This document shows positions 14,804-45,795 of a stretch of DNA of 56,040 bases, one piece after another (the stretch's first letter is position 1; each line of letters opens with the position of its first letter). Location: IMG/VR virus record IMGVR_UViG_3300045256_000426, positions 1-56,040 of that record; one strand, 5' to 3'. The position numbers and the translations under genes are program-made. Below the pieces are notes generated by a model. The model saw nothing but the letters and a program-made list of their open reading frames with translations, searched no databases and was not told the DNA's origin. This DNA comes from a virus. Lineage: Duplodnaviria > Caudoviricetes.

Positions 14804-16522
14804 CTAGCTCTGCATCCAGTTCGCGATGGCCTTCTTGGCCTTCTCGCGAAGAATCGTTTGGATTCGTTTCTTGCCGGTCTGGTCGAAGCCGGAAACGATG
14901 GAGAGCCCGTGGTCGGGAGCCTCGGTCCCATCCTCCCGGGTGTATACCCGCGCTGCCGCCGCTCCGATATGGTTCTCTTCGCGCGTACGCAGCGCCAACA
15001 GCAACGCGAGGACCCGGTCGTCGTGCCCTACCTCGGCCTCGTACTTGCCGTTATCCTGGCGGGAGAAATGCTTGATCTCGTCGAGCGTGCTGCTGTCGTG
15101 GAGCGTGATGAGGCGCGTATTGATCGCGCGACGACCCGCTTCGATGAGGAGCGGACGGCTGTAGACGTTGGTGACCCAGCCCCACAACTTGGCGTTCGCT
15201 TTCTGGAAATGGTCAGGCTTACCACGCCAGGGATGGAACCGGGGGTAGTTGTGGACCCGGAGCAGATAGTCCTGGATCGCGAGGCCCGTGCTCTGCACCT
15301 CGACGTTGACGATTGCGGTGTTGTACCAGCGCCCTAGCTTGTTGATGATACGGGACATGTCCCAAGGGGCAATGGCACCGTGGACGATCGCGACCTGTTC
15401 GATCGTATCCATGTCGAGGACCTGGGCGCAGGCGTAGTCGCCGGTTTCTTTGCCCTCGCGATATACGAAGCCGGTATCGACGCCGATCGCGTACTGGTGG
15501 CCGGCCTGCGGCCTCTTCCAGATCTGGATCTCACCGGACGCGTCTTCGAGTAGCTGATCTCCATGACAGGTCAGCCGCTCGGCCGGTGGCTTGATGTTGG
15601 GCTGCTGGGCGAGGATCGCGAGATGATCGAATGCCGGGAGCCCTCGGCTGATGAAGGCTTCCTCGGCCGTCGAGGGATATTCCTGGTGGAACATCTCGAT
15701 CATGCCTTCGCAGGTTGTCGCGATCTGGTTGCGCCGCCAACGGAGACTGCGGCCGTCGAGCCCAAGATCGCCGAAGACCTTCACCAGGAGTTTCTCTTCC
15801 TCGTCCCACTCGGACTCCGGGACCGGCGGGTCCTCCCGGTACTTCGGCATGATGAACCACGGGATGAAGATGGGACGGAAACGAGAGCGCCCATCTACCG
15901 CCATCTTCCATTGCTTGTAGAAGAGCTCGCCTTGCCCGGCGACCCCGTTCGCCGTACTCTCCAGGATGAAGATCGTATCGGGTAGATACGGTACCGCCTG
16001 CGACAACCCGACGAACACTTCCGGGTGAGGCCAGAACGCAAGCTCGGAGGCATGGACGCAGGTTTGCGTGGTACCTCGGCCCTTGCTCGCGATACCGGCG
16101 GAGATAACCTTGAACCGCGAAACACCGCCCGGCAGCGGAAGCACGAGCTCTTTCATCTTCGAGGGTGTAAGCTTCGGCAGCGGCAGGTAGTCGTAGAACC
16201 GCTTGGCCGTCTCGAAGATCGCCGTTGTGCTATCGAGGTCCTGGGCGATGACGAGGCTGTGTGTATTGGCGTGTTCGAGGGTACGTGTGAAGACGAGGGC
16301 CTCGAAGAACGTACTCGCGTAGACCTGACGCCCCTTGAGCACTATGAACCAGAGCGGATCGTGGTTATCGAGACGAGGAGCGATCGGCCTCCACAGGATC
16401 TTCTGGCTATCCGAGAAACGAAGAGGGACGATACGACTCCGTTCGTCTCGGATGAAGAGACCCTGCATCGCCCGCAGGTACGCTGCGGAGCGAGACAGGC
16501 GGGGGGTAGAGACGGCGGTTAT
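14804..16522 (-). CDS. terL: Terminase large subunit (first ATG at 16468; possible ATA start at 16522)
   Basis: LKGRQVYAST Walker A variant, VHASELAFW Walker B, ILESTANG coupling motif, RNase H-like IGVDTG...GDY...HDDRVLA. Confidence 0.95.
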   Translation of the reverse strand: MTAVSTPRLSRSAAYLRAMQGLFIRDERSRIVPLRFSDSQKILWRPIAPRLDNHDPLWFIVLKGRQVYASTFFEALVFTRTLEHANTHSLVIAQDLDSTTAIFETAKRFYDYLPLPKLTPSKMKELVLPLPGGVSRFKVISAGIASKGRGTTQTCVHASELAFWPHPEVFVGLSQAVPYLPDTIFILESTANGVAGQGELFYKQWKMAVDGRSRFRPIFIPWFIMPKYREDPPVPESEWDEEEKLLVKVFGDLGLDGRSLRWRRNQIATTCEGMIEMFHQEYPSTAEEAFISRGLPAFDHLAILAQQPNIKPPAERLTCHGDQLLEDASGEIQIWKRPQAGHQYAIGVDTGFVYREGKETGDYACAQVLDMDTIEQVAIVHGAIAPWDMSRIINKLGRWYNTAIVNVEVQSTGLAIQDYLLRVHNYPRFHPWRGKPDHFQKANAKLWGWVTNVYSRPLLIEAGRRAINTRLITLHDSSTLDEIKHFSRQDNGKYEAEVGHDDRVLALLLALRTREENHIGAAAARVYTREDGTEAPDHGLSIVSGFDQTGKKRIQTILREKAKKAIANWMQS

Positions 16523-17178
16523 GGGAGGGGGATCCTTCCTAGTTGGCCGGCGGCCTGCTCGGCCGCGCTACGATCGAGGATGTTCTGTGCCATGTGGTGT
16601 AGGGCTTGGTGCCAGGGCAGCCACGTAGAATCCGGGTAGGCCGGCGTGACACCCTTCTCCATCATGCGCGTGAAGATCGGGTAGCCATACTTTTCGGGCA
16701 TCCCGAACTGGCCACGGTTCACGCTGTAAAGTCCATGTAGGGCTTCGTGGACCATAGCAAGGGGACGATCTGCCGGGTTGAGCTTCGGGAGCGCCTGGAG
16801 AAGAACATCGGTACCTTCGGGGATAATCCCGAGTCTCGCGGCTTCCGGCGTCAGATTTCGATTCAGCATCCACGCAAGAGGTAGCCGATCCCCGGCTTGA
16901 TTGAGAAACTGCTGGACAACCGGGGGAACATCGTGTATCGTCGAGAAGGTAAACTTCGCGGGATTACGCGCGAGGGCGGAGTACACACGTGGTGCTACCT
17001 GCCGTAGCTCGCTGGCGAGCGGATGCATCGGGTTCGTCACGATCGCCGGAGAGGGCGCCAGTCCCGCGTTTGGATCGCGGGCTCCCGCGCGGATGATGGC
17101 ATCTACCCACGGAATCCCCGTGGGCTTGAACGAATCATCGAGACGCAACGGCGCGTCGGGGGTACCAGCGTATGGCAT
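16519..17178 (-). CDS. HExxH zinc-metallopeptidase-like protein
   Basis: AMVHEALHGLY motif. Confidence 0.55.
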   Translation of the reverse strand: MPYAGTPDAPLRLDDSFKPTGIPWVDAIIRAGARDPNAGLAPSPAIVTNPMHPLASELRQVAPRVYSALARNPAKFTFSTIHDVPPVVQQFLNQAGDRLPLAWMLNRNLTPEAARLGIIPEGTDVLLQALPKLNPADRPLAMVHEALHGLYSVNRGQFGMPEKYGYPIFTRMMEKGVTPAYPDSTWLPWHQALHHMAQNILDRSAAEQAAGQLGRIPLP

Positions 17179-17196
17179 GGGCGAAGGAGGGGTGGG

Positions 17197-17376
17197 CTAG
17201 TTGTCGTTCTCGGCGCCGCTCGGCCAACCCACGCCGGGCTGCGTGTCCTTGCTCTCGTTCCGGTCTCTCTGAGCTTCGTTGCTCATCTGCCGCTCGTTGC
17301 CCATGGCGCTAAGCAGATGCTCCATGTCTGCGGACTTCCGTCCCGTCTTGATGAAGGCACTACCTCGTTTCGACAT
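17197..17376 (-). CDS. Small hypothetical protein
   Basis: AAGGGG before ATG at 17376; 59 aa. Confidence 0.5.
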   Translation of the reverse strand: MSKRGSAFIKTGRKSADMEHLLSAMGNERQMSNEAQRDRNESKDTQPGVGWPSGAENDN

Positions 17377-17788
17377 ATGCTTCCCCTTCTTCCTCTTCGG
17401 CCTCGGCCTCTTCTTCGTCCATGAATTCGCTCGCGTCGAACGGCACCGCACCGTCGTAGACGGAGCCGGACGCGGAATCTTCTTTCGCGCGGTAGTCACC
17501 CTGATCGGGCAGCACGTCCACGTTACCGTGCAGGTAATCCTGGTACCGCTCCCAGATCTCCCGGTCGAAAGCACCGCGCGCCTTCTCTTCGGCGACGGCC
17601 GCGAACATCGCGTGGCGGTCGCTCTCGATCGCCAGCTTGAGCAGGGAATAGGCATTACAGAAACCCGATAGGGTCTCCCAATCCGTGAGCACCTTGTCGC
17701 GCAGGGCCTCGAAGCCCTTCACGCGACCCTTCTCGGCGATGGTCTTCGGGATATCCCGGAAGAAACCGGCAGGACTAGTGCGGGCCAT
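17360..17788 (-). CDS. Hypothetical protein with acidic C-terminus
   Basis: GGAGGG SD; 142 aa. Confidence 0.6.
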   Translation of the reverse strand: MARTSPAGFFRDIPKTIAEKGRVKGFEALRDKVLTDWETLSGFCNAYSLLKLAIESDRHAMFAAVAEEKARGAFDREIWERYQDYLHGNVDVLPDQGDYRAKEDSASGSVYDGAVPFDASEFMDEEEAEAEEEEGEAYVETR

Positions 17789-19318: not shown

Positions 19319-19885
19319 CTAGTGGGTCGATAGGGCAAGGATGGGGTATTGCCGGTTGGGAAGGCAGCTGTGGGTACGGAGGGATACCTGGTTGATCCGG
19401 TCGCGAATGCTGCCATGGGTGATCTCGGGCTCGTCGATATCCCGATTGGCGATCTGGGCGAGGTGCCGAAACGTCTGCTCCGCCACCGCCGTGCCGTCGT
19501 ACCCCAGGTTGCACATCCAGGTCGCGGCTAGTACATCGGCCTCCTGTTCCAGGTCCGCGCTGGCCATCTGGTACAGCCGGCCGTCCTGCCACTGGATGCA
19601 GTGCCCGAGCTCGTGGAGGAGAACGAAGAACTGCTCGTCGGGTGGCATCTGTTCCTGTAAACCTGTGGAGAACGCGATCAGGACGTGGACGTTCCCGTTG
19701 TCGTCGCCTTCTAACGCCATGAACGCATTGGGGAAATCGTCGTCATAGGAACCGAAGGTAACGTTCCGGCAGCCTACCCACCGGGCGAGAGTCTGCGGGT
19801 CCCAGCCGGGTTCGAGCGAGACGGCCGTCGGCGTGGTGACTACGCAGAGAGCCACCAGCAAAAAAGCGAGCAAAATACGCCGCAT
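19319..19885 (-). CDS. Exported M48-like (HtpX/Oma1-type) zinc metalloprotease
   Basis: Signal peptide MRRILLAFLLVALCVV; PNAF, VLLHELGH, EQEAD, GYD, THG...RI in M48 order; likely start ATG 19885. Confidence 0.8.
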   Translation of the reverse strand: MRRILLAFLLVALCVVTTPTAVSLEPGWDPQTLARWVGCRNVTFGSYDDDFPNAFMALEGDDNGNVHVLIAFSTGLQEQMPPDEQFFVLLHELGHCIQWQDGRLYQMASADLEQEADVLAATWMCNLGYDGTAVAEQTFRHLAQIANRDIDEPEITHGSIRDRINQVSLRTHSCLPNRQYPILALSTH

Positions 19886-19923
19886 ATAGCATCGCTGGTG
19901 GTCTCTGGTGCAGGACGGTTTTC

Positions 19924-20628
19924 CTACTCGACTGAGAGACCCGCCTGAGTAGGGCCGGTGGGCGCAGTGCCCGAGGAGGGCGGGTGGTCGTGCTCGTCTC
20001 CCCATTTCCACTCGTGGCCTTCCCATCGGAGGACGGCAAAGCCACCGGGGGCAATGGGATCTTCGTCCCGAAGAAGAACCTTCCCGGGGGGTTCGTGGAG
20101 GACACCGTTGACCCCATGTTCGAACAGGGCACGAACCACACGAACGTTCCGGGAATGGGTGATCAGGGCGATCGGAAAGGGAGCTGCCTGTGCGAACAGG
20201 AACAGCTGCGACAAGGCAGAAAGGAAGCGTTCGGCGAAGGTGAGGTAGCTTTCGCCTCCCGGTGCCGGCGTGGCCTTGTCGACCAGCAGCGCTTGGAGTT
20301 TGTCCTTGATGGCGTCGACTGGTTGGCCGGTGTAGCGGCCGACGTCCCACGGCCGGAACGCCGGACTGGGGAGGATGGGGGCCGGGGTCGGGAGGGCCTG
20401 TCGGATAATCTGGGCGGTTTCGATCGCCCGGAGCAGATCCGACGAGAAGAGAACCCGGGGGTTGTAGGTCGCGATCGCCGGCGCGAGCTTACGAACGGTA
20501 GCCTGGCCTTTCGGGTCCAGGGGAACGTTCTGCCAGCCCCGAATGCGCTCCCGGCCGAGATTCAGCGCCGTTTCCCCGTGTCGGACGAGAAGAACGAGGG
20601 GAGACGGGGAGGGTGGTACGTCCGGCAT
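19924..20628 (-). CDS. Histidine phosphatase (phosphoglycerate mutase family)
   Basis: LVRHGETALN, SSDLLRAIETA, PGGES, LITHS motifs. Confidence 0.9.
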   Translation of the reverse strand: MPDVPPSPSPLVLLVRHGETALNLGRERIRGWQNVPLDPKGQATVRKLAPAIATYNPRVLFSSDLLRAIETAQIIRQALPTPAPILPSPAFRPWDVGRYTGQPVDAIKDKLQALLVDKATPAPGGESYLTFAERFLSALSQLFLFAQAAPFPIALITHSRNVRVVRALFEHGVNGVLHEPPGKVLLRDEDPIAPGGFAVLRWEGHEWKWGDEHDHPPSSGTAPTGPTQAGLSVE

Positions 20629-21208
20629 GTTCGAGTATTTTCTTGCGGCCGAGGAGGCGAAGAAGACGGGGATGAACCGCCTCCACGACCTGGGTGTCTT
20701 TGCGTTTACGGCGAGCAGCCCAGGCGGGCGCCATTCGAGCCCGCTTCATGTCGGGGGTGTAGGTAGCCCAGGTACGCTTGGAGAGGGCGGACTGCTTGAG
20801 GAGCCAAAGATGCCGTCGCCGAACGAGGGGGTCGCGGTGGTCCGCACCCGGGGGACACAGGCAGCGTGCTGTACCCCGGTTCCCAGCAGCCTCTGTACGG
20901 GCCGCTAGGGGGTCTAGAATCGACGATCGGCGAGGGGGCCGTACTTGGATATCCCCCAAACGCTCCTGGGGGCGTTTCCGGCCCGCTAGCAGCCGTTCGT
21001 AGGCGGCGAGGTCTTTCTGGAACCGTCGGAGCAGCCTTCGGAGGGGAGGGGAGGAGGAGACGAGGGGTTCTACCTTGCGCCAGGCAACGCTGCGGGGGAT
21101 GCCGCTGGCGAGGTCTTTCCGAAGGCCCTCGACGACGCGGGGGAGAGCGGAGCTACCGGGATCGAGGTCGGGGTTTGCGGGAGGTACGGATCTTCGAGGG
21201 GAGTCGAT
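20489..21208 (-). CDS. Basic hypothetical protein, first gene of the minus arm; probable ATC start
   Basis: Frame open from ~21235; protein-like sequence well upstream of the first TTG at 20959; overlaps the phosphatase gene by 140 bp. Confidence 0.4.
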   Translation of the reverse strand: MDSPRRSVPPANPDLDPGSSALPRVVEGLRKDLASGIPRSVAWRKVEPLVSSSPPLRRLLRRFQKDLAAYERLLAGRKRPQERLGDIQVRPPRRSSILDPLAARTEAAGNRGTARCLCPPGADHRDPLVRRRHLWLLKQSALSKRTWATYTPDMKRARMAPAWAARRKRKDTQVVEAVHPRLLRLLGRKKILEHAGRTTLPVSPRSSRPTRGNGAESRPGAHSGLAERSPGPERPGYRS

Positions 21209-28039: not shown

Positions 28040-28740
28040 TCATGTACGAAACGGTAATCTACAAGATCACACGATCAGACCTAACGACCCATAACGGCTA
28101 CCAATGGGTCATTGGGGAAACACGTGAATTTCCCGGTACTGGGGATCTCTGTGGGCCTGGGTATGCCTACGCCTACGAGAGCGCACAGCTGGCACTGCTC
28201 TTGAAATTCATTCACGTCGACTATGACCCCTACTGCCTACTCCGAGGTCGCGGGGTCATCGTCAAGCGGGATGGGCAACTCAAGGCGGGATGCTCGCGTC
28301 TTACGCTGCTAGAGAGGATTACCGTACCCGACATCACGCTGGAGCAGCGCGTAACCTTCGCGGTGTTGAGCGCCCGCGCTGTCCACACGGGGAATCGCTG
28401 GGCGTCCTGGGCGGAGAGGTGGCTCGATGGTACCGACCGCTCGGCGGAGTCGGCGGAAAAGATGGAGCGCGCGGTGGCGGCGTTGGTAAGGACTCGATGG
28501 ATGAAGGCGGCAACGCGGGCATGGGAGGCGGAGGCGGCACGGCGGGCAGCGGATTCGGCGAGGTGGGCAGCGGATTCGGCGCGGGCGGCGGAGCGGGGAG
28601 TCCAGGTGGCGGCGCGGGCAGCGCGGGCAGCGCAGGCGGCGGTGCATGCAGCGCAGGCGGCGGGGCGCTCGCTCAACCTCGCGGTGATCGCGCGGGAAGC
28701 GCTACTTCCGTGGGAGCCGGAAGGGGGAGGGAACTTCTGA
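28036..28740 (+). CDS. Hypothetical protein with Ala-rich repeat C-terminus
   Basis: YKIT...GYQW...LCGPG N-terminal domain; WAERWLDGTDRS followed by AARxA repeats. Confidence 0.7.
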   Translation: MIMYETVIYKITRSDLTTHNGYQWVIGETREFPGTGDLCGPGYAYAYESAQLALLLKFIHVDYDPYCLLRGRGVIVKRDGQLKAGCSRLTLLERITVPDITLEQRVTFAVLSARAVHTGNRWASWAERWLDGTDRSAESAEKMERAVAALVRTRWMKAATRAWEAEAARRAADSARWAADSARAAERGVQVAARAARAAQAAVHAAQAAGRSLNLAVIAREALLPWEPEGGGNF

Positions 28741-28814
28741 CATGGGAAGAACTAGAGTATTCGGATTTGGTGGAAGCGCGGGCAAGCGCTTGGGAGGAGG
28801 ATAACGGAGCATGA
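28737..28814 (+). CDS. 25-aa acidic peptide, probable CTG start
   Basis: GGAGG SD, CTGA overlap with the upstream stop, ATGA overlap with the downstream start. Confidence 0.4.
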   Translation: MTWEELEYSDLVEARASAWEEDNGA

Positions 28815-29275: not shown

Positions 29276-29279
29276 GGGG

Positions 29280-31418: not shown

Positions 31419-32414
31419 TTGTTGTTAGGAGCTGACCCTGAGTTGTTCTTTGTGGACAAAGACGGGCGGGCTGTCTCCGCCCATCGCCTGCTGCCGGACA
31501 AGACGAAGAAGCGGAAGGTCGGGGACTGCTCGGTCTTCCGCGACGGATACGCGGCTGAGATCAACGTACCCGCCGTTGGCTGCCGAGAGAGCCTAGCCTA
31601 CTTCGTCTTTGGTACCCACAAGTACCTACGGGATCTGGCGAGCAAACACGGCTACCGTCTCGCCACGACGCCGATGGTGCCCATCTCCCTCGCGGATCTT
31701 GCCGACGCCCCCGAGGACGTGCTCACGTTCGGCTGTGAGCCGTCATGGGATGCGTACACGGGCGACGTCAAGATCCCACCGCTCGACGGCCGCACCCATC
31801 CGTATCGCTACGCTGGGGGACACATGCACCTCGGCGAGCGCGAGCTCTACGCGCCCCTCTGGCTCCGAAAGGCCGAAGCGGTGCAGACGTACGTCCGCTG
31901 GTTGGATCTGTTCGTCGGTCTACCCCTCACCCTGTGGTTCGATCGCCCCGAGCTCTACGCCCGTCGGCAGTATTACGGGCAGGCCGGGGAATTCCGCTAC
32001 CAGACCTATCCGAACAATTACGTCGGCGTGGAATATCGCACGCCGGGCCCGGAGCTCTGGAACCATCCCGCTGTCGCATCGTTCGCGTTCGGCGTGATGC
32101 GCTATCTCTACCAGAACTTCGCGACGATGCCTGCCTGGGATCATGCGCTCGACGATGATCTACGGGATGCCATCAACAACGGGGGCTCGTGTGGTCCGCG
32201 TCTCCTACGGGAGTGCCCCTACTGGTATTCCCCGGACCAGATTCTTCACCTCGCCAAGACACGAACGTTCCCGTTCGAGTTCGTCGACTGGTCACCGTAT
32301 CTCCCGGGCCCGGGGGGTAAGGGCCTACCTGGTCGTACCTACCACGCCCACAAATACGGTTGGCGGAACTTGCTGGCCGACGTCGAAGCCAACAACGTCC
32401 TAGCCGCAGTGTAG
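31419..32414 (+). CDS. phiEco32-like COOH-NH2 ligase type 2 (glutamine synthetase-like fold)
   Basis: LGADPELF, DGYAAEIN, FGCEPS..AY, RYAGGHMHLG, RRQYYGQAGEFR, GVEYRT; TTG start after AGGAGG. Confidence 0.9.
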   Translation: MLLGADPELFFVDKDGRAVSAHRLLPDKTKKRKVGDCSVFRDGYAAEINVPAVGCRESLAYFVFGTHKYLRDLASKHGYRLATTPMVPISLADLADAPEDVLTFGCEPSWDAYTGDVKIPPLDGRTHPYRYAGGHMHLGERELYAPLWLRKAEAVQTYVRWLDLFVGLPLTLWFDRPELYARRQYYGQAGEFRYQTYPNNYVGVEYRTPGPELWNHPAVASFAFGVMRYLYQNFATMPAWDHALDDDLRDAINNGGSCGPRLLRECPYWYSPDQILHLAKTRTFPFEFVDWSPYLPGPGGKGLPGRTYHAHKYGWRNLLADVEANNVLAAV

Positions 32415-32433
32415 GGGAAAGGAGGCTACTACT

Positions 32434-33825
32434 ATCTGTGGCATAGCCGGATTCTTCGCCTGGGGCGATAGACGCCCCTCTGTACCGATCGTTCGTGCGC
32501 TCCTGCTCGCGCAACAGACTCGGGGTAAGGACGCCGCCGGGGTAGCATACCAGCCGACACCCGAGACCATCCGAGTTGTGAAGAACCGGGGGCCGGCCGA
32601 GGACCTTATCCGGTCGATCCCGGACGCCGAGTGGGAAGTCATCGCTAACAGCCCACGCGTACTCTTCCACGCGAGGGCCACCACGAAAGGAACGGAGGCC
32701 AAACCCGAAAACAACCATCCCGTCGTCGGCTACGACTGGGTCGTGACACACAACGGACACGTCAACAACGACGATGAGCTGTGGGATTACTACGGAGAGG
32801 AGCGGTTCGCGGAAGTAGATACGAGTGCGATCCCTCTCGTTCTCCACAAGGGCGGCGAGGGGGAAGGCAAAGACCTACTGTCGTCGCTGTCGTACCTGTC
32901 GATCTTATCCGGTTCTATCACCGTCGCGGTATGGAGCCAAAAGTACCTCGACCACATCGCCTTGGCGAGGCTCGGAAGTAACGATCTGTACCTGTTCCTC
33001 GACGAAGACATTCTGTACTGGTCGAGTGCGCCAGTCGCCGCTAGGATCATGCCCGGTACCACGTTGGGGAACCTGCGCTTCATCACCTGGGCCAAGCTTC
33101 CCGACAATCGCATCCTCCTCCTACGCCCGGACGAGCCGTTCGGGACCATGTACGAGGTAGACCGTCGCCCTTTCGTTCGCCGAAGTTGGTCTGTGAAATC
33201 GACTACGAATACGGGTGGGGTAGCTACTAGCTCCCCCTCTTCCCAACTGGCGCTTCCTCCAGCCCGTTCCAAGGGCGGAGCGTTAACGCTGGAGAAGCTG
33301 GCACCGAAGGAATATCCTGACCGGCCGCCGATGTCATTGCCGGCGGTCGACAAATTCAGCTGGAAAACTACCGACCTACTCGAAATCGGTAGGGGTTTGC
33401 GAAGCAGCAGTATCTCGAAGGCCACCGTGTTCTCGACGATGGGGCGGTGGATCTTCAACAAGACCAAAAGCAGCACAGAACCCGAGATTGTTCGGACCTT
33501 CAAGCCGTACAAGTCCGTCAAGAAGTTCCTGCGTCGGAACATCGGCCACGTTCCGGTCTTCCCGGTGATCCGATCACGGCCGGGTGATCCGGTAGAACCG
33601 GGTACGTCTGCGTTCTACGACAATCGAATGACGCTTATCGCGTTGCGATTCTCCGAGCCGCTCGACAGCGGCGGCGTATTCCAGACGATGGGCTATATCT
33701 GCCCGTGGTGTGGCGTATGGGGCCGTTATAACGTCTGGTCGGCAACGCAGTACCGCTGCGAGTTCTGCGGGATTCAGTCGAAGCACGAACCACCGAAGCC
33801 CAGTGGGGAAGGAGGGAAAGAATGA
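32434..33825 (+). CDS. Class II (Ntn) glutamine amidotransferase, ATC start
   Basis: ATC-TGT gives (M)CGIAGFF; RGKDAAG, HARATT, NNHP, HNGHVNN, VDT; C-terminal Zn ribbon CPWC...CEFC. Confidence 0.9.
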   Translation: MCGIAGFFAWGDRRPSVPIVRALLLAQQTRGKDAAGVAYQPTPETIRVVKNRGPAEDLIRSIPDAEWEVIANSPRVLFHARATTKGTEAKPENNHPVVGYDWVVTHNGHVNNDDELWDYYGEERFAEVDTSAIPLVLHKGGEGEGKDLLSSLSYLSILSGSITVAVWSQKYLDHIALARLGSNDLYLFLDEDILYWSSAPVAARIMPGTTLGNLRFITWAKLPDNRILLLRPDEPFGTMYEVDRRPFVRRSWSVKSTTNTGGVATSSPSSQLALPPARSKGGALTLEKLAPKEYPDRPPMSLPAVDKFSWKTTDLLEIGRGLRSSSISKATVFSTMGRWIFNKTKSSTEPEIVRTFKPYKSVKKFLRRNIGHVPVFPVIRSRPGDPVEPGTSAFYDNRMTLIALRFSEPLDSGGVFQTMGYICPWCGVWGRYNVWSATQYRCEFCGIQSKHEPPKPSGEGGKE

Positions 33826-34595
33826 CGTCGACGTCATCACTCCTGCCGCGACGTCCAATCACGGAGAAAGATCTCGACCCGATCATTCGGGCAATGGACG
33901 ACGGGAGGCTCACCCTCAGTAACATCGCAGAGCATCTGTACCAGTACGAAAAAGGCTGGAGCATCTACGCCGCGAAACTCGCCGAGGAGACCCGCGAACG
34001 GGTCTTCGGGTGGGCCGACTATCTAGCGGCATACGGGGGCCGCTCGTCCTCGGGCCAAGACTCGCGTTACTTCATAGCGTTTTGGACCACTACCTTTTCT
34101 CTCATTCCACGCGAGGAGTTCCCGAGATTTTTCCGGGATTACTGGAAGAAGCTTACTGTCGTCGCGTCGGTCCGGGAGATGAGCAGCAGAAACGTACGAG
34201 TATGTGCGGGGGTGTGCGCTTGCGGCAAGTATTGGGAGAACATACCGCAGCTAGCTGCTAAGAAGCAGCTGGACAAGAGTCATACGTGGAATCTATGGAC
34301 TAACCTCGACGAGCCCCCAGTAGAGCTATGCACACGGTTAGCGGCCAGTACGGGGTCGTCACTCGCTACCGCGAGCTTGTTTGCGCATATCCATGGCGTC
34401 TGTTCCATCTGCAAGTGGGCCTGTGCGTCGTGTGGTGCTTCGTTGCCTACCAGCGGTCCCGGGCTGGTTAGCGCCATTGTCGAGGATTTCTCGTGTCCTA
34501 TCTGCGCTAGCAACCGGCTAACGAAAGTACAGCCACCAAAGCCGAATCGGGCCGAGCTAAAAGTCTACCGCTCGAAGTTCACCGTCGTCCGCTAG
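33822..34595 (+). CDS. Cys-rich hypothetical protein inside the amidoligase cluster
   Basis: ATGA overlap; CACG, CSIC, CASCG, CPIC. Confidence 0.7.
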   Translation: MTSTSSLLPRRPITEKDLDPIIRAMDDGRLTLSNIAEHLYQYEKGWSIYAAKLAEETRERVFGWADYLAAYGGRSSSGQDSRYFIAFWTTTFSLIPREEFPRFFRDYWKKLTVVASVREMSSRNVRVCAGVCACGKYWENIPQLAAKKQLDKSHTWNLWTNLDEPPVELCTRLAASTGSSLATASLFAHIHGVCSICKWACASCGASLPTSGPGLVSAIVEDFSCPICASNRLTKVQPPKPNRAELKVYRSKFTVVR

Positions 34596-34622
34596 ACCGT
34601 ACCACGAAAGGAGGGGAACACT

Positions 34623-35675
34623 CTGTCCGATCCTAACGCTCCGTATCCCGTAAAGCTACACCGTCTTGGCAGTGACCCGGAGTGGGTGTTCGCGAGGATC
34701 AAGGAGTGGCAATACGCGGTCGTCCCGGCCAACCAGGTCATCACGCCGAACAAGGCGTTGGGATTGTCCACGTTCCTTGGGGTCGATGGACACGCAGCTA
34801 CCGCCGAGATCCGTCCGACGCCGTCGTATAACATTCGCCGGCATCTGTACGACATCGCCTACGGCCTCGTCACCACCGATGCCTATCTCCGCCGTTATCC
34901 CAAGTGGAAAGACGTACGGATGGTCGCGCTGCCGTACGTCGGACAGGAAGCACTCGGGGGCCATATCCATGCCACGCTCTTCGTCATGGACCCCACGATG
35001 TGGAAGCTCCAGCTAACCAACCGCGTCTACCTGCGGGACTTCGACATCTACAACCCCCAGGCGCCCACCACCCCGGCTAACCAATCCATCACCAACATGT
35101 GTGTCAAGCACCTCGAAGACATCAACGCGGAGAGGACCGTCACCCCAGATCTATTCGGGAGGGTCCTGAACTACCTCCTCGCCCCGTTCGAGCGGTGGAT
35201 TCAGCCGTGGCATTCACGAATCCGGCGCAATCACAACTACGGAACGGAAACCGGCGGGGATCTCATTCGGTACAGCTACCTCCCGCGCCCGGAGAGGATG
35301 CCGAAGTTCAACGATTGGGCGTACCTCCATTTCGAGTACCGCCTACCTTCGACTTGGCTCGCGAATCCTTGGCTCGCCTACGCCTACCTCGGCTTGGCAA
35401 AGTTCTCGCTCCTCAACTGGGACACCATCGTACCCCTCATCCGCGGAAGAGATACCAGCACCGACGTGCGAGCGGCTAGTTCGGAGCCAGACAATGGGCG
35501 TTTCTGGCAAATCTTCATCGACCGCTGGCGGGAAATTCGCGGAAAGCGGATGCTCGAAAGTGCCGATCTCCACGAGCTCGACACCGTCTTCGACTTCCTC
35601 CGTGACAGCCGCGAGCAGATCTTCGCGCCCTATGCCGGCATCCAAATCGATGCCTGGAGGAAACTGCTGGAATGA
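34623..35675 (+). CDS. Second COOH-NH2 ligase (amidoligase), CTG start
   Basis: LGSDPEWVF lies upstream of the annotated GTG; GVDG..ATAEIRP, LGGHIH, FEYRLPSTWL. Confidence 0.85.
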   Translation: MSDPNAPYPVKLHRLGSDPEWVFARIKEWQYAVVPANQVITPNKALGLSTFLGVDGHAATAEIRPTPSYNIRRHLYDIAYGLVTTDAYLRRYPKWKDVRMVALPYVGQEALGGHIHATLFVMDPTMWKLQLTNRVYLRDFDIYNPQAPTTPANQSITNMCVKHLEDINAERTVTPDLFGRVLNYLLAPFERWIQPWHSRIRRNHNYGTETGGDLIRYSYLPRPERMPKFNDWAYLHFEYRLPSTWLANPWLAYAYLGLAKFSLLNWDTIVPLIRGRDTSTDVRAASSEPDNGRFWQIFIDRWREIRGKRMLESADLHELDTVFDFLRDSREQIFAPYAGIQIDAWRKLLE

Positions 35676-36391
35676 TCTACGTGTTATGCCCCCGGCCTAG
35701 CTCGGGGGCGCGAGAACTCGTTGCTTGGCTGCGGGCGAACGGCAGCGAGGCCCGGAAGGTCCGCAGGATTCCGGCACTTCACGTCGGGGACCTGCTCGTC
35801 AACTGGGGCGTGTCGGGGATAGACGCTACTACCCTCGATCGGGCTGATGTGCTTAACCCCAACGTCTGCACGAACAAGTACCACCAGCTAGAAGCTCTCG
35901 CCGACGCCGGGGTGCCCGTACCCGAACATCGTCGTACCCGCCCCGAGTCTATGCAGGGATGGCTAGCTCGGAGGTTTTACCACCGCGAGGCCAGCGACCT
36001 TCTCGCCGAGCTTGACCACGGGGACTACTACGTCTGGTTCATCCCCGTCGAACGGGAGTTCCGTATCCATATCTTCAAGGGCAAAAGCATCCGGGCGGGT
36101 ATGAAGGTACCCCGTACCACTACTCCCCATCCCAACTTTCGATCGTGGGCTGCCGGTTGGAAGCTGTCCTATGGCTCCGACTGCCAAAGTTACATGCGCC
36201 AGTCCTTCCGGAATACCGCCAGGAGAGCCGTAGAGGCCCTAGGGCTGGACTTTGGCGCCGTGGACCTAGCGGTACGCGCCAACGGGGACATCGTCGTCTG
36301 GGAGGTCAACACGGCCCCTGGCCTCGAAGGGGGCACCATCGCCGCCTATGGGCGGCACATCCAGGAGGTAGATCGTAATGCGACGACCTAG
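35672..36391 (+). CDS. ATP-grasp ligase (RimK-like, phiEco32 type)
   Basis: VNWG, NKYHQ, EFRIHIF, LGLDFGAVD, VWEVNTAPGL. Confidence 0.9.
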   Translation: MIYVLCPRPSSGARELVAWLRANGSEARKVRRIPALHVGDLLVNWGVSGIDATTLDRADVLNPNVCTNKYHQLEALADAGVPVPEHRRTRPESMQGWLARRFYHREASDLLAELDHGDYYVWFIPVEREFRIHIFKGKSIRAGMKVPRTTTPHPNFRSWAAGWKLSYGSDCQSYMRQSFRNTARRAVEALGLDFGAVDLAVRANGDIVVWEVNTAPGLEGGTIAAYGRHIQEVDRNATT

Positions 36392-37330: not shown

Positions 37331-37353
37331 CGAGAGGAAGGAGCGAGAACCCT

Positions 37354-37533: not shown

Positions 37534-37562
37534 CAGAAAATGCCGGCTCCTAGCCACGGAAA

Positions 37563-37955: not shown

Positions 37956-38315
37956 ATGCCCTACGCGCGTATTCGGGACCTCATCCTCGATGAGGAAGGG
38001 TCGCTCCGCATCGACCCCGCCTCCCTGGAGGCCCTAAAGATCATCCGGAAGTTGAGATACGGGCTGTCGGACTCCGAGCCTACGAGGTCTTTCTGTGGGG
38101 AGCCCCACGAGGAGTTCATCGTCAAGCTCGACGATAGCCGAAGGCAATGTGTCGCTTGCATGAAGACCGATCGACCGAAGCCCTATCCCGCCCCGGCTAG
38201 GCAGGCCCAAACGGATCGGACCTCGGCCCCATTTTGGTGGGTCCTACCGACGGACCCGCCTGCGTTCAACGACAACGAGGATACGTTCGACGACGTGGAC
38301 GCGCCCGAGGACTAG
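37956..38315 (+). CDS. Hypothetical Zn-binding protein upstream of primase
   Basis: GGAGG SD; CGEPH...CVAC; acidic tail. Confidence 0.65.
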   Translation: MPYARIRDLILDEEGSLRIDPASLEALKIIRKLRYGLSDSEPTRSFCGEPHEEFIVKLDDSRRQCVACMKTDRPKPYPAPARQAQTDRTSAPFWWVLPTDPPAFNDNEDTFDDVDAPED

Positions 38316-38320
38316 AGAAC

Positions 38321-38977: not shown

Positions 38978-39144
38978 ACAAACAGACACGCGCGGTACTC
39001 CGTGAGTTCGTCGACGCCGTGGACGAGGATCACCTGGAATTGGCGGTACGGATCTACGTGAATAACTACGAGCTCTTTCCTCACGACAAGAAGTTCCTGA
39101 AAGGGCTAGCTGCATGGACCAAGATCCGACTTGCAAAGGAGTAG
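38974..39144 (+). CDS. Small hypothetical protein (56 aa, not in ORF track)
   Basis: ATGA overlap; AAAGGAG SD. Confidence 0.55.
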   Translation: MNKQTRAVLREFVDAVDEDHLELAVRIYVNNYELFPHDKKFLKGLAAWTKIRLAKE

Positions 39145-41733: not shown

Positions 41734-41736
41734 TCC

Positions 41737-42105
41737 TTGGCACCATTTTCACGTCGTGGCAACAAGGGGAATTCGATTCGCCTTACTGGGCTCTTCCCGA
41801 TGAAGAGCGGGAAGGGTTTCTGGGGCAGCCTTCGCCCACAAGATATCGAGGACCTCGTCCAGACCATCAAGCAAGCCAAGGCCGACGACAAGGGCCTTGT
41901 GTTCTTCGTTTGGAAGAACGATCGCGATCGCCGAGGGAGCGGGCCGGCCCTGTCTCTCTCCGCCGCTGTGTCCCAGGACCGGCAGGAGGACCGGCAGGAT
42001 CGTGTGCGCCGCCGTCCGATCGGTGCCCCGCAACGTCCTACGCCGGCCGACGACGACGACGACCCGTTCCCGGAGGGAGACGACCCTTTCGGGGACGAGG
42101 GATAG
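41737..42105 (+). CDS. Putative ssDNA-binding / replication accessory protein
   Basis: Acidic DDDDDPF...DDPF tail; LTGLF, VWKND; AGGAGG plus TTG. Confidence 0.55.
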   Translation: MAPFSRRGNKGNSIRLTGLFPMKSGKGFWGSLRPQDIEDLVQTIKQAKADDKGLVFFVWKNDRDRRGSGPALSLSAAVSQDRQEDRQDRVRRRPIGAPQRPTPADDDDDPFPEGDDPFGDEG

Positions 42106-42143
42106 AACCTCGGCGTGTTCGAGCTACGGCCCGGAGGTAGGTT

Positions 42144-43130
42144 TTGATTCCTCTCCCGGATAGTCTCACCATCGGCCGCGACGTCGAAGACGAGAAGAAG
42201 CTCCTTTCTGCCGCAAGGTCGTGGCTTGAGCGGGAGGAACGGCCGAAGGGGATCCACGCCAGTGATCTACTCGATCCTCGTAAGGCATACTACCGTCTCG
42301 TCGATCCCAAGGGCACCAGCGATCGAGATGTACCGATCTTCCTAGTGGGGAAGGTGCTTCATGCCTTTGTCCTCGGTTCCCTCGAAGGGAAGGTCGATCT
42401 TTCCGTTACGGACGAGGGCGCACAGTATGACGAGGAACTAGGGCTCTGGTACAGCCCCGACTGGGACAAGGGCGAGATCGCCGAGTTCAAGACTAGCCGT
42501 CGCTTCTATGAACCCCAGACGGCCGGTGACATCGATACCTACCTCGAACAGGTCCTCGTCTACATGGCGGCAAAGAAACGCCGCCGGGCGAAGCTATGGG
42601 TCTTGTTTCTCAACCGGAAGGACCCCGACAGCCGCCGTACCTCCCCCGAGTTTCGCGCCTATACCATCGACATTTCCGAGGAAGATCTTGATAACCTTCG
42701 AGAGCACATTCAGGCCACCAGAGCGGCGCTGGAGAAGGCCATTGCCCAAGGGAGCCCTGCCGACCTTCCGCTTTGTCGAGAATGGCTCTGTGGACCCAGT
42801 ATGTGTCCCTGGTGGGAACAGTGCAAGCCCGCCGGGCGATATGAGGTAGACCCCTCTGCTACCGACCAAACCCCGCCCCATCGTACCGATCTCTCAACGA
42901 CGTATAGTTCCTCTGTCGGCGGAGTTGGAGAAAGCGATCCTGTCGGCGATCCTTCGAGGCCACGTCGAACTCGACGTCGTCGAGGAACAGGAGCTGTCCA
43001 AGATGGGCCGGCTGCTGCTTCGGGCGATCTTGAATCTCGCGGAGACGGGGAGCAAGCCACCGTACCGCCTCGGCGTCGTCGCGCTCGTGGCGACGGACGT
43101 TCTCGGGGGGAACCGGGAGGAAGTTCGTAG
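42144..43130 (+). CDS. PD-(D/E)xK exonuclease (Cas4/RecB-like); C-terminal tail overlaps the helicase gene
   Basis: IHASDLLDPRK, SPD...EFKT, QVLVY, C-terminal Cys cluster CREWLC...CPWWEQC. Confidence 0.85.
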   Translation: MIPLPDSLTIGRDVEDEKKLLSAARSWLEREERPKGIHASDLLDPRKAYYRLVDPKGTSDRDVPIFLVGKVLHAFVLGSLEGKVDLSVTDEGAQYDEELGLWYSPDWDKGEIAEFKTSRRFYEPQTAGDIDTYLEQVLVYMAAKKRRRAKLWVLFLNRKDPDSRRTSPEFRAYTIDISEEDLDNLREHIQATRAALEKAIAQGSPADLPLCREWLCGPSMCPWWEQCKPAGRYEVDPSATDQTPPHRTDLSTTYSSSVGGVGESDPVGDPSRPRRTRRRRGTGAVQDGPAAASGDLESRGDGEQATVPPRRRRARGDGRSRGEPGGSS

Positions 43131-44037
43131 GTACCTCGCCGACGTCGCCCGTTTCCAGGCCGAGAGCGACGTAGCGGACATTCTCCAGAAGGTCCGCGAC
43201 AAGCAGCTGCTCGTCAGCCTGGTCAACGAAGCCGCCGCTCAGCTAGGAAAGGGCGTCCTCGACGTCGGCCACCTTTCCGCCCTCCTCGCGGGTCGGGAGA
43301 AGGGAACGGTCGACGTCGGATCGATCGCGGACCGGATCCGAGACGGGCTACCAGATGCCCCCGAAGGACTCCGACTCTCCAGCCTCCCGAAGCTGTCCGA
43401 AGCGACGGGTGGTGTCTACGGCGTCTGGGTCATAGGCGGGGGCCCCGGCATCGGGAAGAGTACCCTTGCATGGCAGATAGCCCTCGACCTCGGGCGCCGT
43501 CTTCCGATCGTCTACAACGATAGCGAGAATGGCTTCCCGGTCATCATGGACCGCACCCGTAGTATCTTCCAGGGCAACCTGGGGAAGATTCGAGAAGCAA
43601 CGAAACGCATCTTCTACTGTGAGAACGCCCGGGATCTGGACCGCCATCTCGCCGTCGTCGAGCCGCCGGCCCTCATTATCATCGACAGTCTCCAGAAACT
43701 TCCTTCGTCCGTGGAGTACCGACGGGAAAGCTTGGACCGCTGGATCCACCGGCTAGAGATGCTCAAGAAGCGGGGTTATCACGTCCTGCTCGTGTCGGAG
43801 ATCCCGCGCTCCATGTACGACAACGAACCGTCCATCGGTGCCTACAAAGAGACCGGCGAGATCGAGTACGCCGCCGATCTTGGACTCCAGCTGCTTTCGG
43901 ATACCGACGACGGCCCCGTACGTGCGTTCATCGTCAAGAACCGCCATCACCCCAAGAAAGGCTATGTATGTTCTCTCCAGCGAGTACGTAGCTGGTGGTG
44001 GGAGGAAACGGATACAACGTGGACTCCAACGATCTAG
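42856..44037 (+). CDS. DnaB-like replicative helicase (probable CTG start; first TTG at 42925)
   Basis: PLSAELEKAILSAIL DnaB N-terminal motif, GGPGIGKST, IIIDSLQ, KETGEIEYAAD, VKNRH. Confidence 0.9.
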   Translation: MLPTKPRPIVPISQRRIVPLSAELEKAILSAILRGHVELDVVEEQELSKMGRLLLRAILNLAETGSKPPYRLGVVALVATDVLGGNREEVRRYLADVARFQAESDVADILQKVRDKQLLVSLVNEAAAQLGKGVLDVGHLSALLAGREKGTVDVGSIADRIRDGLPDAPEGLRLSSLPKLSEATGGVYGVWVIGGGPGIGKSTLAWQIALDLGRRLPIVYNDSENGFPVIMDRTRSIFQGNLGKIREATKRIFYCENARDLDRHLAVVEPPALIIIDSLQKLPSSVEYRRESLDRWIHRLEMLKKRGYHVLLVSEIPRSMYDNEPSIGAYKETGEIEYAADLGLQLLSDTDDGPVRAFIVKNRHHPKKGYVCSLQRVRSWWWEETDTTWTPTI

Positions 44038-44120
44038 TCGTTCTGCTCCTCGTGACTATCATGCTATTCGCTAGAAGAATCCCCCGAGGAAGAAGAAAAG
44101 GAGCCAGATAAACCGCCACT

Positions 44121-44987
44121 ATGGCTTACATCCACTTTTCCTTCGACACCAAGAAGCAGAAGGGGGCCGGTGCGACGAAGCCGGCGTTGCGGCTGTACCC
44201 GCTGGTGTGTATGCACGTCGGCTCTCCACAGTGCGATATGCGCTTCCTCAAGGCGCAAATCGCCCGTATCGAGAACGATCCAAGCGGGCGGTGGGTATAC
44301 ATGGGGGACGGCGGGGAGTGCGTGACAAAGCTTTCGAGGGGGGATGTTTATGGGCAGCTCCTCTCCCCCCAACAGCAGATGGAGTGCCTCCTTGACCTTC
44401 TGCGGCCGATTGCGTCGAAGGGCCTGTTCGGGATTCGAGGCAATCACGGCAACCGGATCTACAAAGAATCCGGCCTCAGCTTCGACCATAATCTATGTAG
44501 TCAGCTGGGTCTGCCATACCTCGGTGTAGCGGCGATGGCGAACATCGTCGTCAACCGTAGCTCCTACGATCTGTATTTCCATCACGGTATTGACAGCGGT
44601 ACGCCGGTTACGTCGAAGGTGAAGCGGGCAGAGGATTTCATGCGCTTCATAAACGCAGACGCCGTGTTTACCGCGCATAGCCACGTCGCGATGGAGCTAC
44701 CACCCGCCGTGCTCTTGCAGGCGGACAACAACGCCCGCCGCGTTTTCACCCGCCTGCGGCACCAGTACATTTGTGGTTCGGCCTACGACAGTAGGACGGG
44801 CTACGCCGAAGACCGCGGCTACCCGCCGTTGCTGCCTTCGTACATCTCGGTGGAGTTCGACGGACGGATCATCGAAGGCCGAGCCGTGAAGGGCCAGAAG
44901 TTCGAGCGGTACCAGAGCGACGGTCAGCACGAACTCCGGCACGATTATATCCTACCCTATCTGGAGAACCAACCCGACAATGGATGA
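44121..44987 (+). CDS. Calcineurin-like metallophosphoesterase
   Basis: CMH (in place of DxH), MGD, GNHG, HHG, AHSH. Confidence 0.8.
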   Translation: MAYIHFSFDTKKQKGAGATKPALRLYPLVCMHVGSPQCDMRFLKAQIARIENDPSGRWVYMGDGGECVTKLSRGDVYGQLLSPQQQMECLLDLLRPIASKGLFGIRGNHGNRIYKESGLSFDHNLCSQLGLPYLGVAAMANIVVNRSSYDLYFHHGIDSGTPVTSKVKRAEDFMRFINADAVFTAHSHVAMELPPAVLLQADNNARRVFTRLRHQYICGSAYDSRTGYAEDRGYPPLLPSYISVEFDGRIIEGRAVKGQKFERYQSDGQHELRHDYILPYLENQPDNG

Positions 44988-45256
44988 CAAGAACGAACGG
45001 ATGTTCGCTGGTTTTCGTTTCGGTCTGTTCCTGCCATAGGCGCGGCGCGGCGCGGCGAGGGCTCGACCCTATGCCCGAGAACGTGGCAGCAACGACGGAG
45101 CCATGTAACCATCTCGGCACCGCTCTCTGGATCAACAACTTTAGCTGGTGGTGTGGTAGCTGTGGACGGGCCGTTGCCTTCTACAACCTGATCCCGCATC
45201 GTCAGGCGCACGTACCGGGAGAGATCGTCAGTCCCACGGATTTGGAGGATGTGTAG
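44984..45256 (+). CDS. Small Zn-binding protein (start uncertain, possibly 45071)
   Basis: CNH...CGSCG. Confidence 0.4.
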   Translation: MTRTNGCSLVFVSVCSCHRRGAARRGLDPMPENVAATTEPCNHLGTALWINNFSWWCGSCGRAVAFYNLIPHRQAHVPGEIVSPTDLEDV

Positions 45257-45259
45257 ACC

Positions 45260-45352
45260 ATGGACTACTTCTGGTGGGCGCGATGGTTCGTCGCCCAAAT
45301 TGCGATAGGAGTGATGGCGTTTTGGACTCTGCGCGTATTTCGCCTGCTGTAA
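45260..45352 (+). CDS. 30-aa membrane peptide (not in ORF track)
   Basis: GGAGG SD; MDYFWWARWFVAQIAIGVMAFWTLRVFRLL. Confidence 0.5.
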   Translation: MDYFWWARWFVAQIAIGVMAFWTLRVFRLL

Positions 45353-45795
45353 TCTCCGTCTACCTAGCGCATCCATACTCCAAGAAAGCCGAAGGGAAGC
45401 GCGTCCAGGCCGAGATCGAAAAACTTGGCATCCTCGTAGTCAATCCCTTCGACCGCGGGGAACAGGCGATCTATGACAAGAAGCTTGCCCCGGGCGGCGG
45501 TGGGCTCGATTACAACGACTGCGCCGCGATCGTCAATATGGACCTCTGGAAGATCGACGAGACACGGGGCGTGGTTGCGCTCCTCTTGGATCCCTCGTCG
45601 ATCGGCACGATTATGGAGATCTTCTACGCCTCCCACGTAAAACATCGGTCGGTCTTCTCCTATGCCCCGACCGAACGGTTCGCAGCGCACCCCTGGATTC
45701 GGTACTACAGCAGGGGGGTGTATCAAACCGAACCATCGCTGTATTTGGCGTTGAAGGAATGGGCTGCGGAGTGGAGAGAGCGGAGGGATGCCTGA
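45352..45795 (+). CDS. Nucleoside 2-deoxyribosyltransferase / deoxynucleotide N-glycosidase-like protein, probable ATC start
   Basis: VYLAHP, VVNPF, DLWKID, SIGTIMEIFYA; TA-ATC overlap with the upstream stop. Confidence 0.75.
   Translation: MSVYLAHPYSKKAEGKRVQAEIEKLGILVVNPFDRGEQAIYDKKLAPGGGGLDYNDCAAIVNMDLWKIDETRGVVALLLDPSSIGTIMEIFYASHVKHRSVFSYAPTERFAAHPWIRYYSRGVYQTEPSLYLALKEWAAEWRERRDA

Follow-up and report, generated by a model that had tools for sequence, protein, structure and literature searches.

The virus genome IMGVR_UViG_3300045256_000426 (Duplodnaviria; Caudoviricetes; 56,040 bp, ~61% G+C) was analysed over its full length, hereafter called the window. The window is the whole record and represents a complete 56-kb hot-spring phage genome; the sequencing runs that contain it are labelled as hot-spring or microbial-mat metagenomes. 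Genes are carried by the minus strand up to ~21.2 kb, by the plus strand from ~21.8 to 49.3 kb, and by the minus strand again beyond. The features considered here are the large terminase gene (terL) and a conserved gene of unknown function (open reading frame (ORF) 21208) on the minus strand and, on the plus strand, an operon encoding a class-II glutamine amidotransferase (GATase) and a COOH-NH2 ligase type 2 (ligase 2), a replicative helicase gene, a nucleoside 2-deoxyribosyltransferase-like gene and a 25-codon ORF (Table 1). The original prediction had placed non-canonical start codons (ATC, CTG or ATA instead of ATG, GTG or TTG) on core enzymes, at seven sites. Read directly, the bases and coordinates of all seven are as predicted. 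As for the starts themselves, the proposal is well supported for GATase, ligase 2 and the helicase and probably holds for terL and ORF 21208, but it fails for the deoxyribosyltransferase.

Table 1 Features of the window at and around the candidate non-canonical starts (CDS, coding sequence; SD, Shine-Dalgarno site, with its duplex energy)
Feature	Position	Strand	Remarks
Large terminase (terL) CDS	14804..16522	-	Probable ATA start 16522; ATAA (16522-16519) overlap with the TAA of the upstream gene
terL SD, AGGAAGGA	16540-16533	-	10 nt upstream of ATA; -6.4 kcal/mol
Conserved gene of unknown function (ORF 21208)	20489..21208	-	Probable ATC start 21208; GGAG 21224-21221, 12 nt upstream; -6.7 kcal/mol
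25-codon ORF	28737..28814	+	CTGA overlap (28737-40) at start, ATGA overlap at end
Amidoligase operon	31419..36391	+	Pfam and PHROG matches; two near-cognate starts
GATase SD, AGGAGG	32420..32425	+	8 nt before ATC; -11.9 kcal/mol
Class-II (Ntn) GATase CDS	32434..33825	+	ATC start 32434; catalytic Cys codon TGT 32437
Ligase 2 SD, AGGAGG	34609..34614	+	8 nt before CTG; -12.4 kcal/mol
COOH-NH2 ligase type 2 CDS	34623..35675	+	CTG start 34623
Helicase SD-like site, GAGGT	42843..42847	+	8 nt before CTG; -7.0 kcal/mol
DnaB-like/AAA_25 replicative helicase CDS	42856..44037	+	CTG 42856 likely start
Nucleoside 2-deoxyribosyltransferase-like CDS	45322..45795	+	TTG 45322 preferred start; ATC 45352 unneeded

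A non-canonical start was considered necessary where homologues share protein sequence that is encoded ahead of the first ATG, GTG or TTG but after the nearest in-frame stop upstream. The strength of each Shine-Dalgarno (SD) site was expressed as a duplex energy against a generic anti-SD sequence. In the GATase frame, the upstream stop is TAG 32401-03, no ATG, GTG or TTG precedes the catalytic Cys codon, and the first canonical codon is GTG 32578, 48 codons past the ATC. Ntn amidotransferases expose their catalytic Cys once the initiator residue has been removed. Since this Cys must directly follow the initiator and no canonical codon is present, the ATC start is forced unless the enzyme is dead. 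The predicted arrangement of AGGAGG, eight nucleotides, ATC and TGT is confirmed, and its SD energy ranks within the top 15% of the genome's chosen starts. The class-II domain is recognised by Pfam (GATase_6, 41.5 bits, E 1.7e-10, cutoff 27) and the protein matches a glutamine amidotransferase in PHROG (E 9.6e-10), with position 1 of two PHROG profiles aligned to residue 1. Moreover, 22 of 28 homologues begin with MCG exactly on the ICG of the window, the TGT codon corresponding to their Cys2; five others begin later, at an internal Met, and in the last, a 20-residue extension precedes an Ile at the initiator position. The database entry for the window's GATase (415 aa) was called from GTG 32578 and lacks the nucleophile. 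An out-of-frame CTG or TTG within ATC-TGT or ATT-TGT was rejected as an alternative, the corresponding frame of the window stopping after 11 codons. A start at the non-canonical ATC is thus well supported by the conserved N-terminus.

Ligase 2 lies two genes further in the same operon. Its frame opens after TAG 34593-95, an in-frame codon that terminates the preceding 257-aa gene, and contains no canonical codon before GTG 34686 at residue 22. The protein matches Pfam PF14395 (37.4 bits, cutoff 25), and positions 1-100 of the profile align to residues 15-117 of the CTG-started protein. A G[SA]DPE motif is found in 57 of 57 aligned homologues, 8-20 residues from the N-terminus. The window's copy, GSDPE, stands upstream of the GTG and is missing from its database entry (329 aa), which is a truncated call. 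As had been argued, the CTG is needed to include this motif; it is also the only class-IIA near-cognate codon between the TAG and GSDPE. A ligase 2 start at this CTG is therefore well supported as a prediction.

The helicase passes the AAA_25 cutoff (35 bits against 27) and not that of DnaB_C (22.1 bits against 27), and it matches the PHROG family 'DnaB-like replicative helicase' (E 1.8e-14). We therefore name it DnaB-like, that is, a RecA-fold helicase, and not a proven DnaB member. Its CTG had been proposed as needed for a full DnaB N-terminal motif. The GAGGT site and the CTG are present and homologues support a non-canonical start, but a Pfam scan of the helicase gave no match to the DnaB N-terminal domain; the LS..LE..AIL motif found there is conserved within this phage helicase family and may be the DnaB motif in question. 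The frame contains TAG 42847-49 upstream, and its first canonical codon is TTG 42925, with a GGAG directly abutting the codon. This TTG encodes Leu24, invariant in 30 of 30 aligned sequences, Leu20 being conserved in at least 90%, and 70 of 78 homologues reach 5-30 residues further upstream than the TTG. The other in-frame near-cognate codons (ATC 42880, ATC 42889, ATA 42904 and CTG 42913) have no SD (+0.5 to -0.7 kcal/mol). The database entry for the window's helicase (344 aa) is without the N-terminus.

A comparison with the helicase of a 66-kb relative (contigs L164 and L165; 52% identical) provides what we regard as the decisive evidence for a non-canonical helicase start. There, an in-frame TAA is followed by nine codons and a CTG, with GGAGA 6 nt before the CTG, and 20 codons separate this CTG from the same LS..LE motif as in the window. 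The L165 frame reaches a canonical codon only at its 65th position, none occurring within 64 codons of the in-frame stop, and the corresponding database entry (P0194) is ~100 residues short. The helicases of two more distant relatives start at ATG. The need for a non-canonical codon thus appears well supported, and the CTG of the window is likely its exact initiating codon. A nuclease ORF of the PD-(D/E)XK/Cas4-like type (42144-43130, plus strand) precedes the helicase. Its Pfam domain ends at about residue 228 (~42830), and there is no stop until 43130, so that a Pro/Arg-rich tail of ~95 residues extends 275 nt into the helicase gene in a different frame; the L165 nuclease also overlaps the helicase start, by ~100 nt only.

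On the minus strand, the terL ATA and the ATC of ORF 21208 had been put forward as weaker cases, and both sites exist as described. The ATA of terL overlaps the stop of the upstream gene, and no canonical codon follows the in-frame TAG 16570-68 until ATG 16468, which has essentially no SD (-2.2 kcal/mol). Three relatives' terminases (54-59% identity) keep aligning upstream of this ATG, which makes a non-canonical start probable. In two of them (L176 and L177), GTG is followed by T-T-A...(S)TP...RSARYRRAM, as compared with ATA-T-A-V-S-T-P-R-L-S-R-S-A-A-Y-L-R-A-M in the window. In the relative G001, the terL ATG aligns with CTG 16498 of the window (MTRSERYRRFM versus LSRSAAYLRAM). More distant terminases have long, variable N-termini and are uninformative. 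From these alignments, we consider it fairly probable that terL starts at a non-canonical codon, ATA being more likely than CTG 16498; initiation at ATG 16468 is a credible second choice that we consider less probable.

The frame of ORF 21208 is open from 21235 to 20489. From the ATC onwards, 83 codons contain no canonical start; the first, TTG 20959, comes at residue 93 of the stop-to-stop frame. A 162-residue homologue in G001 (E 2.9e-17, 40% identity), which shows that the gene is genuine, aligns to residues 39-206, 54 of which are upstream of the TTG, and begins with an ATG at about residue 22-24 of the window frame. In addition, the coding score of the 83 codons upstream of the TTG is +12.7 when read in this frame and -22 and -19 in the two others. 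Within the span permitted by these data, ATC 21208 is the only class-IIA codon. It is thus the predicted start, a call that we consider probable. The window's ORF is ~55 residues longer at its C-terminus than the G001 homologue and overlaps the next gene (ATG 20628) by ~140 nt.

To place these sites in the genome, a homemade gene caller defined 84 segments, 56 of which score at least 20. Near the onset of coding, the best canonical start of these 56 segments is ATG in 40, GTG in seven and TTG in five. The remaining four have none: GATase, ligase 2, an ORF with an ATG further downstream and an ORF running off the window end. All stop-to-stop frames were also compared with the fetched relatives. 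Only GATase, ligase 2, the helicase, terL, ligase 1 and an ATP-grasp gene were flagged; the upstream starts of the last two were artefacts, as the upstream similarity vanished on inspection. ORF 21208 surfaced once the region of G001 was searched. In the reverse comparison, which covered ~43% of G001, only the helicase lacks a canonical start there; a RuvC homologue considered as a second case in G001 has a normal ATG. Two other candidates in the window were rejected: ATG 19885 precedes a signal-peptide-like N-terminus in ORF 19319-20488, which removes the case for a hidden start, and the PHROG profile of gene 19924-20628 begins downstream of ATG 20628, which removes that for ATC 20673. This leaves three to five near-cognate starts among ~70-84 genes. 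ORF 21208 is the one carrier without an assigned function; the other four are enzymes.

Energies and spacings of the SDs at the five sites are given in Table 1; the downstream canonical codons of the same genes have weak SDs (-2.2 to -6.1 kcal/mol). For comparison, annotated E. coli starts are 81.8% ATG, 13.8% GTG and 4.35% TTG, with non-canonical starts confirmed only for infC and pcnB, according to the available part of bioRxiv 10.1101/063800. Five near-cognate starts in 70-84 ORF segments is far above the E. coli background given in that portion of the source. Among the 56 higher-scoring ORFs, the stop codons are TAG in 33, TGA in 13 and TAA in ten, a TAG dominance that is unusual at 61% G+C.

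The start codons of GATase homologues were then compared across phages. Alignment-based scans gave 160 GATase loci, of which 157 have the site clear of the contig edges and 136 are distinct over positions -30 to +300; a Cys codon is aligned at the TGT position in the 157. In the 136 distinct loci, the codon before the Cys is ATG (107), TTG (12), GTG (7), ATC (5), ATT (4) or ACG (1). Hence, non-canonical starts recur in homologues, in ~7% of distinct loci (10/136), and are not limited to the window. Nine of these ten loci offer no canonical codon after the closest preceding in-frame stop, which is at a distance of 9-42 nt; in L007, the tenth, a TTG in frame occurs 111 nt upstream. Two contigs (L088 and L094) share one ATT locus without any difference over -30 to +300. 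On a FastTree phylogeny of 137 rows including the window, whose support values are local only and some of whose long branches are flagged, parsimony requires at least nine switches between canonical and non-canonical codons. The non-canonical starts fall in three clades, including that of the window (three of ten rows), and their loci range from 0.41 to 0.60 in G+C. The GATase of the 66-kb relative starts at ATG.

The non-canonical GATase sites have stronger SDs. Median energies are -12.4 kcal/mol at non-canonical codons (n=10), -6.5 kcal/mol at ATG (n=107) and -2.7 kcal/mol at GTG or TTG (n=19), and one-sided Mann-Whitney tests of the non-canonical loci against either other group give p 4e-4 each, to be read as indicative because the loci are related. 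The combination of a weak codon and a strong SD is that expected of a working, compensated initiation site and not of a decaying gene. Three loci (L009, L010 and L013) encode near-identical GATase proteins; L009 has an extra GGGAGG segment followed by ATC, whereas L010 and L013 have TTG. From the aligned sequences, this looks like recent remodelling of the start site.

The bases themselves were examined in Logan contigs from two runs of one sample, at ~9-13x over 28600-45500. The five plus-strand sites agree with the window in both, and the listed differences between runs and window (33977, 35422, 41199 and 42754) do not touch a start site. The recurrence of such starts in other contigs is a stronger argument against a base error than these reads. 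At 33912-34261, a low-depth run (X5) contains a variant of the 257-aa operon gene with nine substitutions and deletions of 4 nt and 2 nt (34181-34186), which indicates that a related strain co-occurs.

The deoxyribosyltransferase had been thought to start at an ATC within a TAATC stop/start overlap. This overlap exists (45350-54), but three canonical codons lie upstream in frame (GTG 45274, ATG 45283 and TTG 45322). The TTG has an AGGAG SD (-7.4 kcal/mol), and the ATC has none (+0.5 kcal/mol). A library-wide search gave 286 relatives, with family N-termini 2-12 residues before a VYLAHP motif; no match was found in five related records. A start at the TTG gives 12 residues before VYLAHP, as in the closest homologue (P0242, 62-65% identity), and a start at the ATC would leave two, a length that one homologue also has. 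The ATC was rejected as a needed start, since the canonical TTG with its SD fits the closest homologue. A 30-codon ATG ORF (45260-45352, plus strand), hydrophobic and Trp-rich, with a GGAGG SD, lies between the preceding gene and the deoxyribosyltransferase and overlaps the TTG start by 31 nt. The remaining predicted site, CTG 28737, opens the 25-codon ORF. It has a strong SD (-11.5 kcal/mol) 6 nt upstream, and the coding score of the ORF is slightly positive; in-frame TTG 28767 and GTG 28770 are also available, and a further candidate, ATG 28742, uses a different frame and shares this SD at a distance of 11 nt. No homologue of this ORF was available for comparison, and its CTG is thus a mere candidate start.

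GATase and ligase 2 belong to a five-gene operon in the order COOH-NH2 ligase (TTG 31419), GATase (ATC), the 257-aa gene (ATG 33822), ligase 2 (CTG) and a RimK-like ATP-grasp (ATG 35672). The phiEco32-like amidoligase systems were reportedly first described by Iyer and colleagues. As annotated in Pfam PF14395 and PHROG, these systems comprise COOH-NH2 ligases, a class-II GATase and an ATP-grasp, a gene content that matches the operon. We encountered no tie between them and unusual starts; in the window, two of the five genes use ATC or CTG and a third uses TTG. A literature search on COOH-NH2 ligase/amidotransferase phages and non-canonical starts gave nothing linking near-cognate starts to this family, which is not proof of absence in print. 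A gamma-glutamyl cyclotransferase homologue (27354-27752, plus strand; PHROG E 4e-17) lies 4 kb upstream; together with the operon, it looks like a peptide-ligating or peptide-modifying module.

Elsewhere in the genome, the replication genes include an ORF (45759-46199, plus strand) that matches PHROG families for an endolysin/RNA-polymerase inhibitor (E 9e-39) and a dATP/dGTP pyrophosphohydrolase (E 4e-27). The record ends (1-400 and 55670-56040) share a diverged direct repeat whose copies are offset by 55,671 nt, with stretches that are identical or have several mismatches, and minus-strand ORFs run off both ends (1-771 and 53650-56040). These ends could form one long repeat-containing gene across a circularly permuted assembly. 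PHROG and Pfam gave no match for ORF 21208, the 257-aa operon gene and most early genes. Scans of the window for tRNA and tmRNA genes and for Rfam families found none, hence no phage-borne initiator or suppressor tRNA, and neither a translation factor nor a deformylase or Met-aminopeptidase was found among the ~40 ORFs scanned with PHROG and Pfam. Two 4-kb stretches of the window gave no megablast match, and hence no close relative, among deposited phage records. Single-protein scans of viral contigs with GATase and the helicase returned no relative, whereas the alignment-based scans did. A helicase profile scan of genome contigs returned only C-terminal matches of 60-80 residues in five contigs of metagenome-assembled genomes, uninformative on the host or on start codons.

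Overall, we consider it probable that at least three genes of this phage, and probably five, start at near-cognate codons of class IIA, backed by a strong SD or by a gene overlap, and are expressed at a low level. In this mechanism, the initiator formylmethionyl (fMet)-tRNA would read the near-cognate codon with one mismatch, while the 30S subunit would be held at the site by the strong and optimally spaced SD (AGGAGG and 8 nt at two genes). At terL, where the initiating codon would be ATA or possibly CTG, the stop/start overlap with the upstream gene would allow termination-reinitiation at ATAA. The output would be low as compared to an ATG start. In GATase, initiation with fMet followed by Met removal would be required to expose the catalytic Cys1. 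The purpose may be to keep catalytic, low-copy proteins at low levels, or at levels sensitive to initiation factor 3 (IF3). We infer from sequence both the insertion of Met and the exact initiating codon of the helicase, terL and ORF 21208.

Published data are compatible with such low initiation. In the accessible portion of bioRxiv 10.1101/063800, E. coli reporters that begin with AUA, AUC, AUU or CUG reach 1-2% of the AUG level, and the AUC product has an N-terminal Met. Values of 5-7.5% are reported for a phage murein hydrolase in work cited in the available text of PMC5499595, where it is also stated that non-AUG starts can be conserved on particular genes and that the AUU or AUC of infC is the target of IF3 autoregulation. 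In phage M13, IF3 overexpression lowered re-initiation at a coupled junction, as described in PMC2268962. The original prediction had offered deliberate damping or relaxed IF3 proofreading as explanations, and these data make both possible. The evidence from sequence comparison leans towards maintained, compensated weak starts because the SDs are stronger, CTG recurs at the same place in two diverged helicases and the loci span 0.41-0.60 in G+C.

Several observations weigh against these conclusions. A start at TTG 42925 would cost the helicase only ~23 residues, and eight of 78 database homologues are that short or shorter. In terL, ATG 16468 is available and the upstream similarity extends over only 10-25 residues. 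ORF 21208 has one homologue only, and its SD spacing of 12 nt is long. Homologues of ligase 2 occur in nine fetched loci; the eight with an upstream in-frame stop have canonical codons before the motif, and the ninth (L007) runs off the contig edge, so that the CTG appears specific to the lineage of the window. The GATase trait is not fixed in its lineage, which also fits drift. The gene caller being crude, the denominator of ~70-84 genes is approximate. The read check spans 28600-45500, with the terL 16522 and ORF 21208 sites outside it, and its two runs represent one sample, possibly the source of the assembly, and are hence not independent.

The strongest competing explanation accepts the near-cognate starts as real but attributes them to IF3 proofreading being relaxed in the host or in the infected cell, so that changes from ATG to ATC or CTG would drift nearly neutrally, with no selected damping. 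It would account for the presence of such starts on five genes of unrelated function in one genome, for the differing subsets in relatives (G001 has CTG on its helicase but ATG on GATase, ligase 2 and terL) and for the fast turnover of start codons seen between L009 (ATC) and L010/L013 (TTG), whose proteins are near-identical. We nevertheless find it unlikely. The non-canonical GATases come from several clades of widely different G+C, which makes one special host improbable, and SDs stronger than those at ATG sites suggest that the weak codon, far from being neutral, has a cost that is compensated. In addition, most other window genes have ATG (40 of the 52 with a canonical start), and neither the tRNA scan nor that of the ~40 ORFs revealed a tRNA or translation-factor gene.

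Alternatively, the proteins could be translated in shortened form from the downstream canonical codons (GTG 32578, GTG 34686, TTG 42925, ATG 16468 and TTG 20959), the upstream homology being a relic. The public entries of the window were indeed called in this way (415, 329 and 344 aa), and terL and the helicase would lose few residues. On the other hand, the GATase would lose Cys1 with its first 48 residues and have no nucleophile, the invariant GSDPE would be missing from ligase 2, and the helicase would have to start on an invariant Leu codon abutted by its GGAG. The SDs are weak at these codons and strong at the near-cognate sites, and in L165 the first canonical helicase codon comes only 64 codons past the in-frame stop. 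We therefore judge this explanation very improbable.

Errors of sequencing or assembly, or recent inactivating mutations in a genome undergoing decay, might be suspected in metagenomic data where every site is one base from ATG, but they are scarcely credible given five open and conserved frames, contigs of two runs that agree at the five plus-strand sites, where they list no variant, and the same kind of start in 10 of 136 GATase loci, one of them identical in L088 and L094, and in the L164/L165 helicase. Recoding, by TAG read-through or by a frameshift fusing upstream ORFs (the 257-aa protein with ligase 2, the nuclease with the helicase), would draw on the in-frame TAG that precedes the GATase, ligase 2 and helicase sites by 6-33 nt, on the shared frame of the 257-aa gene and ligase 2 and on the 275-nt extension of the nuclease ORF into the helicase gene, but it is just as implausible: TAG is simply the commonest stop (33 of 56 genes), homologues of the three proteins begin independently at these positions, the nuclease (frame 0) and the helicase (frame 1) could not be fused by a -1 shift, each site has its own SD, and no suppressor tRNA was found.

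The compensated near-cognate starts that we favour resemble those of infC and pcnB in E. coli, which likewise have a class-IIA start on a non-structural gene; such a start is read by the initiator tRNA, is subject to IF3 discrimination and is retained by a given gene in related organisms (PMC5499595 and bioRxiv 10.1101/063800, as far as their available parts describe). In contrast, the window has several unrelated genes of this type, uses CTG and ATA as well, and has unusually strong SDs, and its link to IF3 is hypothetical. Belinky et al. 2017 (PMC5622118) associate the loss of ATG with changes in the initiation region, in the portion of the article available, and in the GATase family a stronger SD similarly accompanies ATC, ATT and ACG. 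That study apparently deals, in the same portion, with ATG, GTG and TTG, whereas the present case concerns non-canonical codons in a phage enzyme family.

A bolder, highly speculative possibility is that near-cognate codons with strong SDs form, in this phage group, a deliberate regulatory class that senses the IF3-to-ribosome ratio and thereby times or caps the replication, packaging and amidoligase enzymes. In its boldest version, the amidoligase operon may close a feedback loop on its own ATC and CTG genes. The RimK-like ATP-grasp resembles enzymes that modify ribosomal protein S6 (PHROG label); if it modifies the small subunit and loosens discrimination, it would switch on the ATC and CTG genes, the helicase and the terminase.

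Near-cognate initiation in bacteria is usually deemed a rarity, represented by infC and pcnB; here, three to five cases occur in one small phage genome, and the genes concerned are essential or catalytic. For annotation, this means that standard gene callers systematically truncate such proteins. The window and its relatives offer a natural test set (ATC, CTG, ATA, ATT and ACG, with defined SDs) for the joint control of start choice by the SD and IF3. Weak codons combined with strong SDs may be a common, overlooked means by which phages set enzyme levels.

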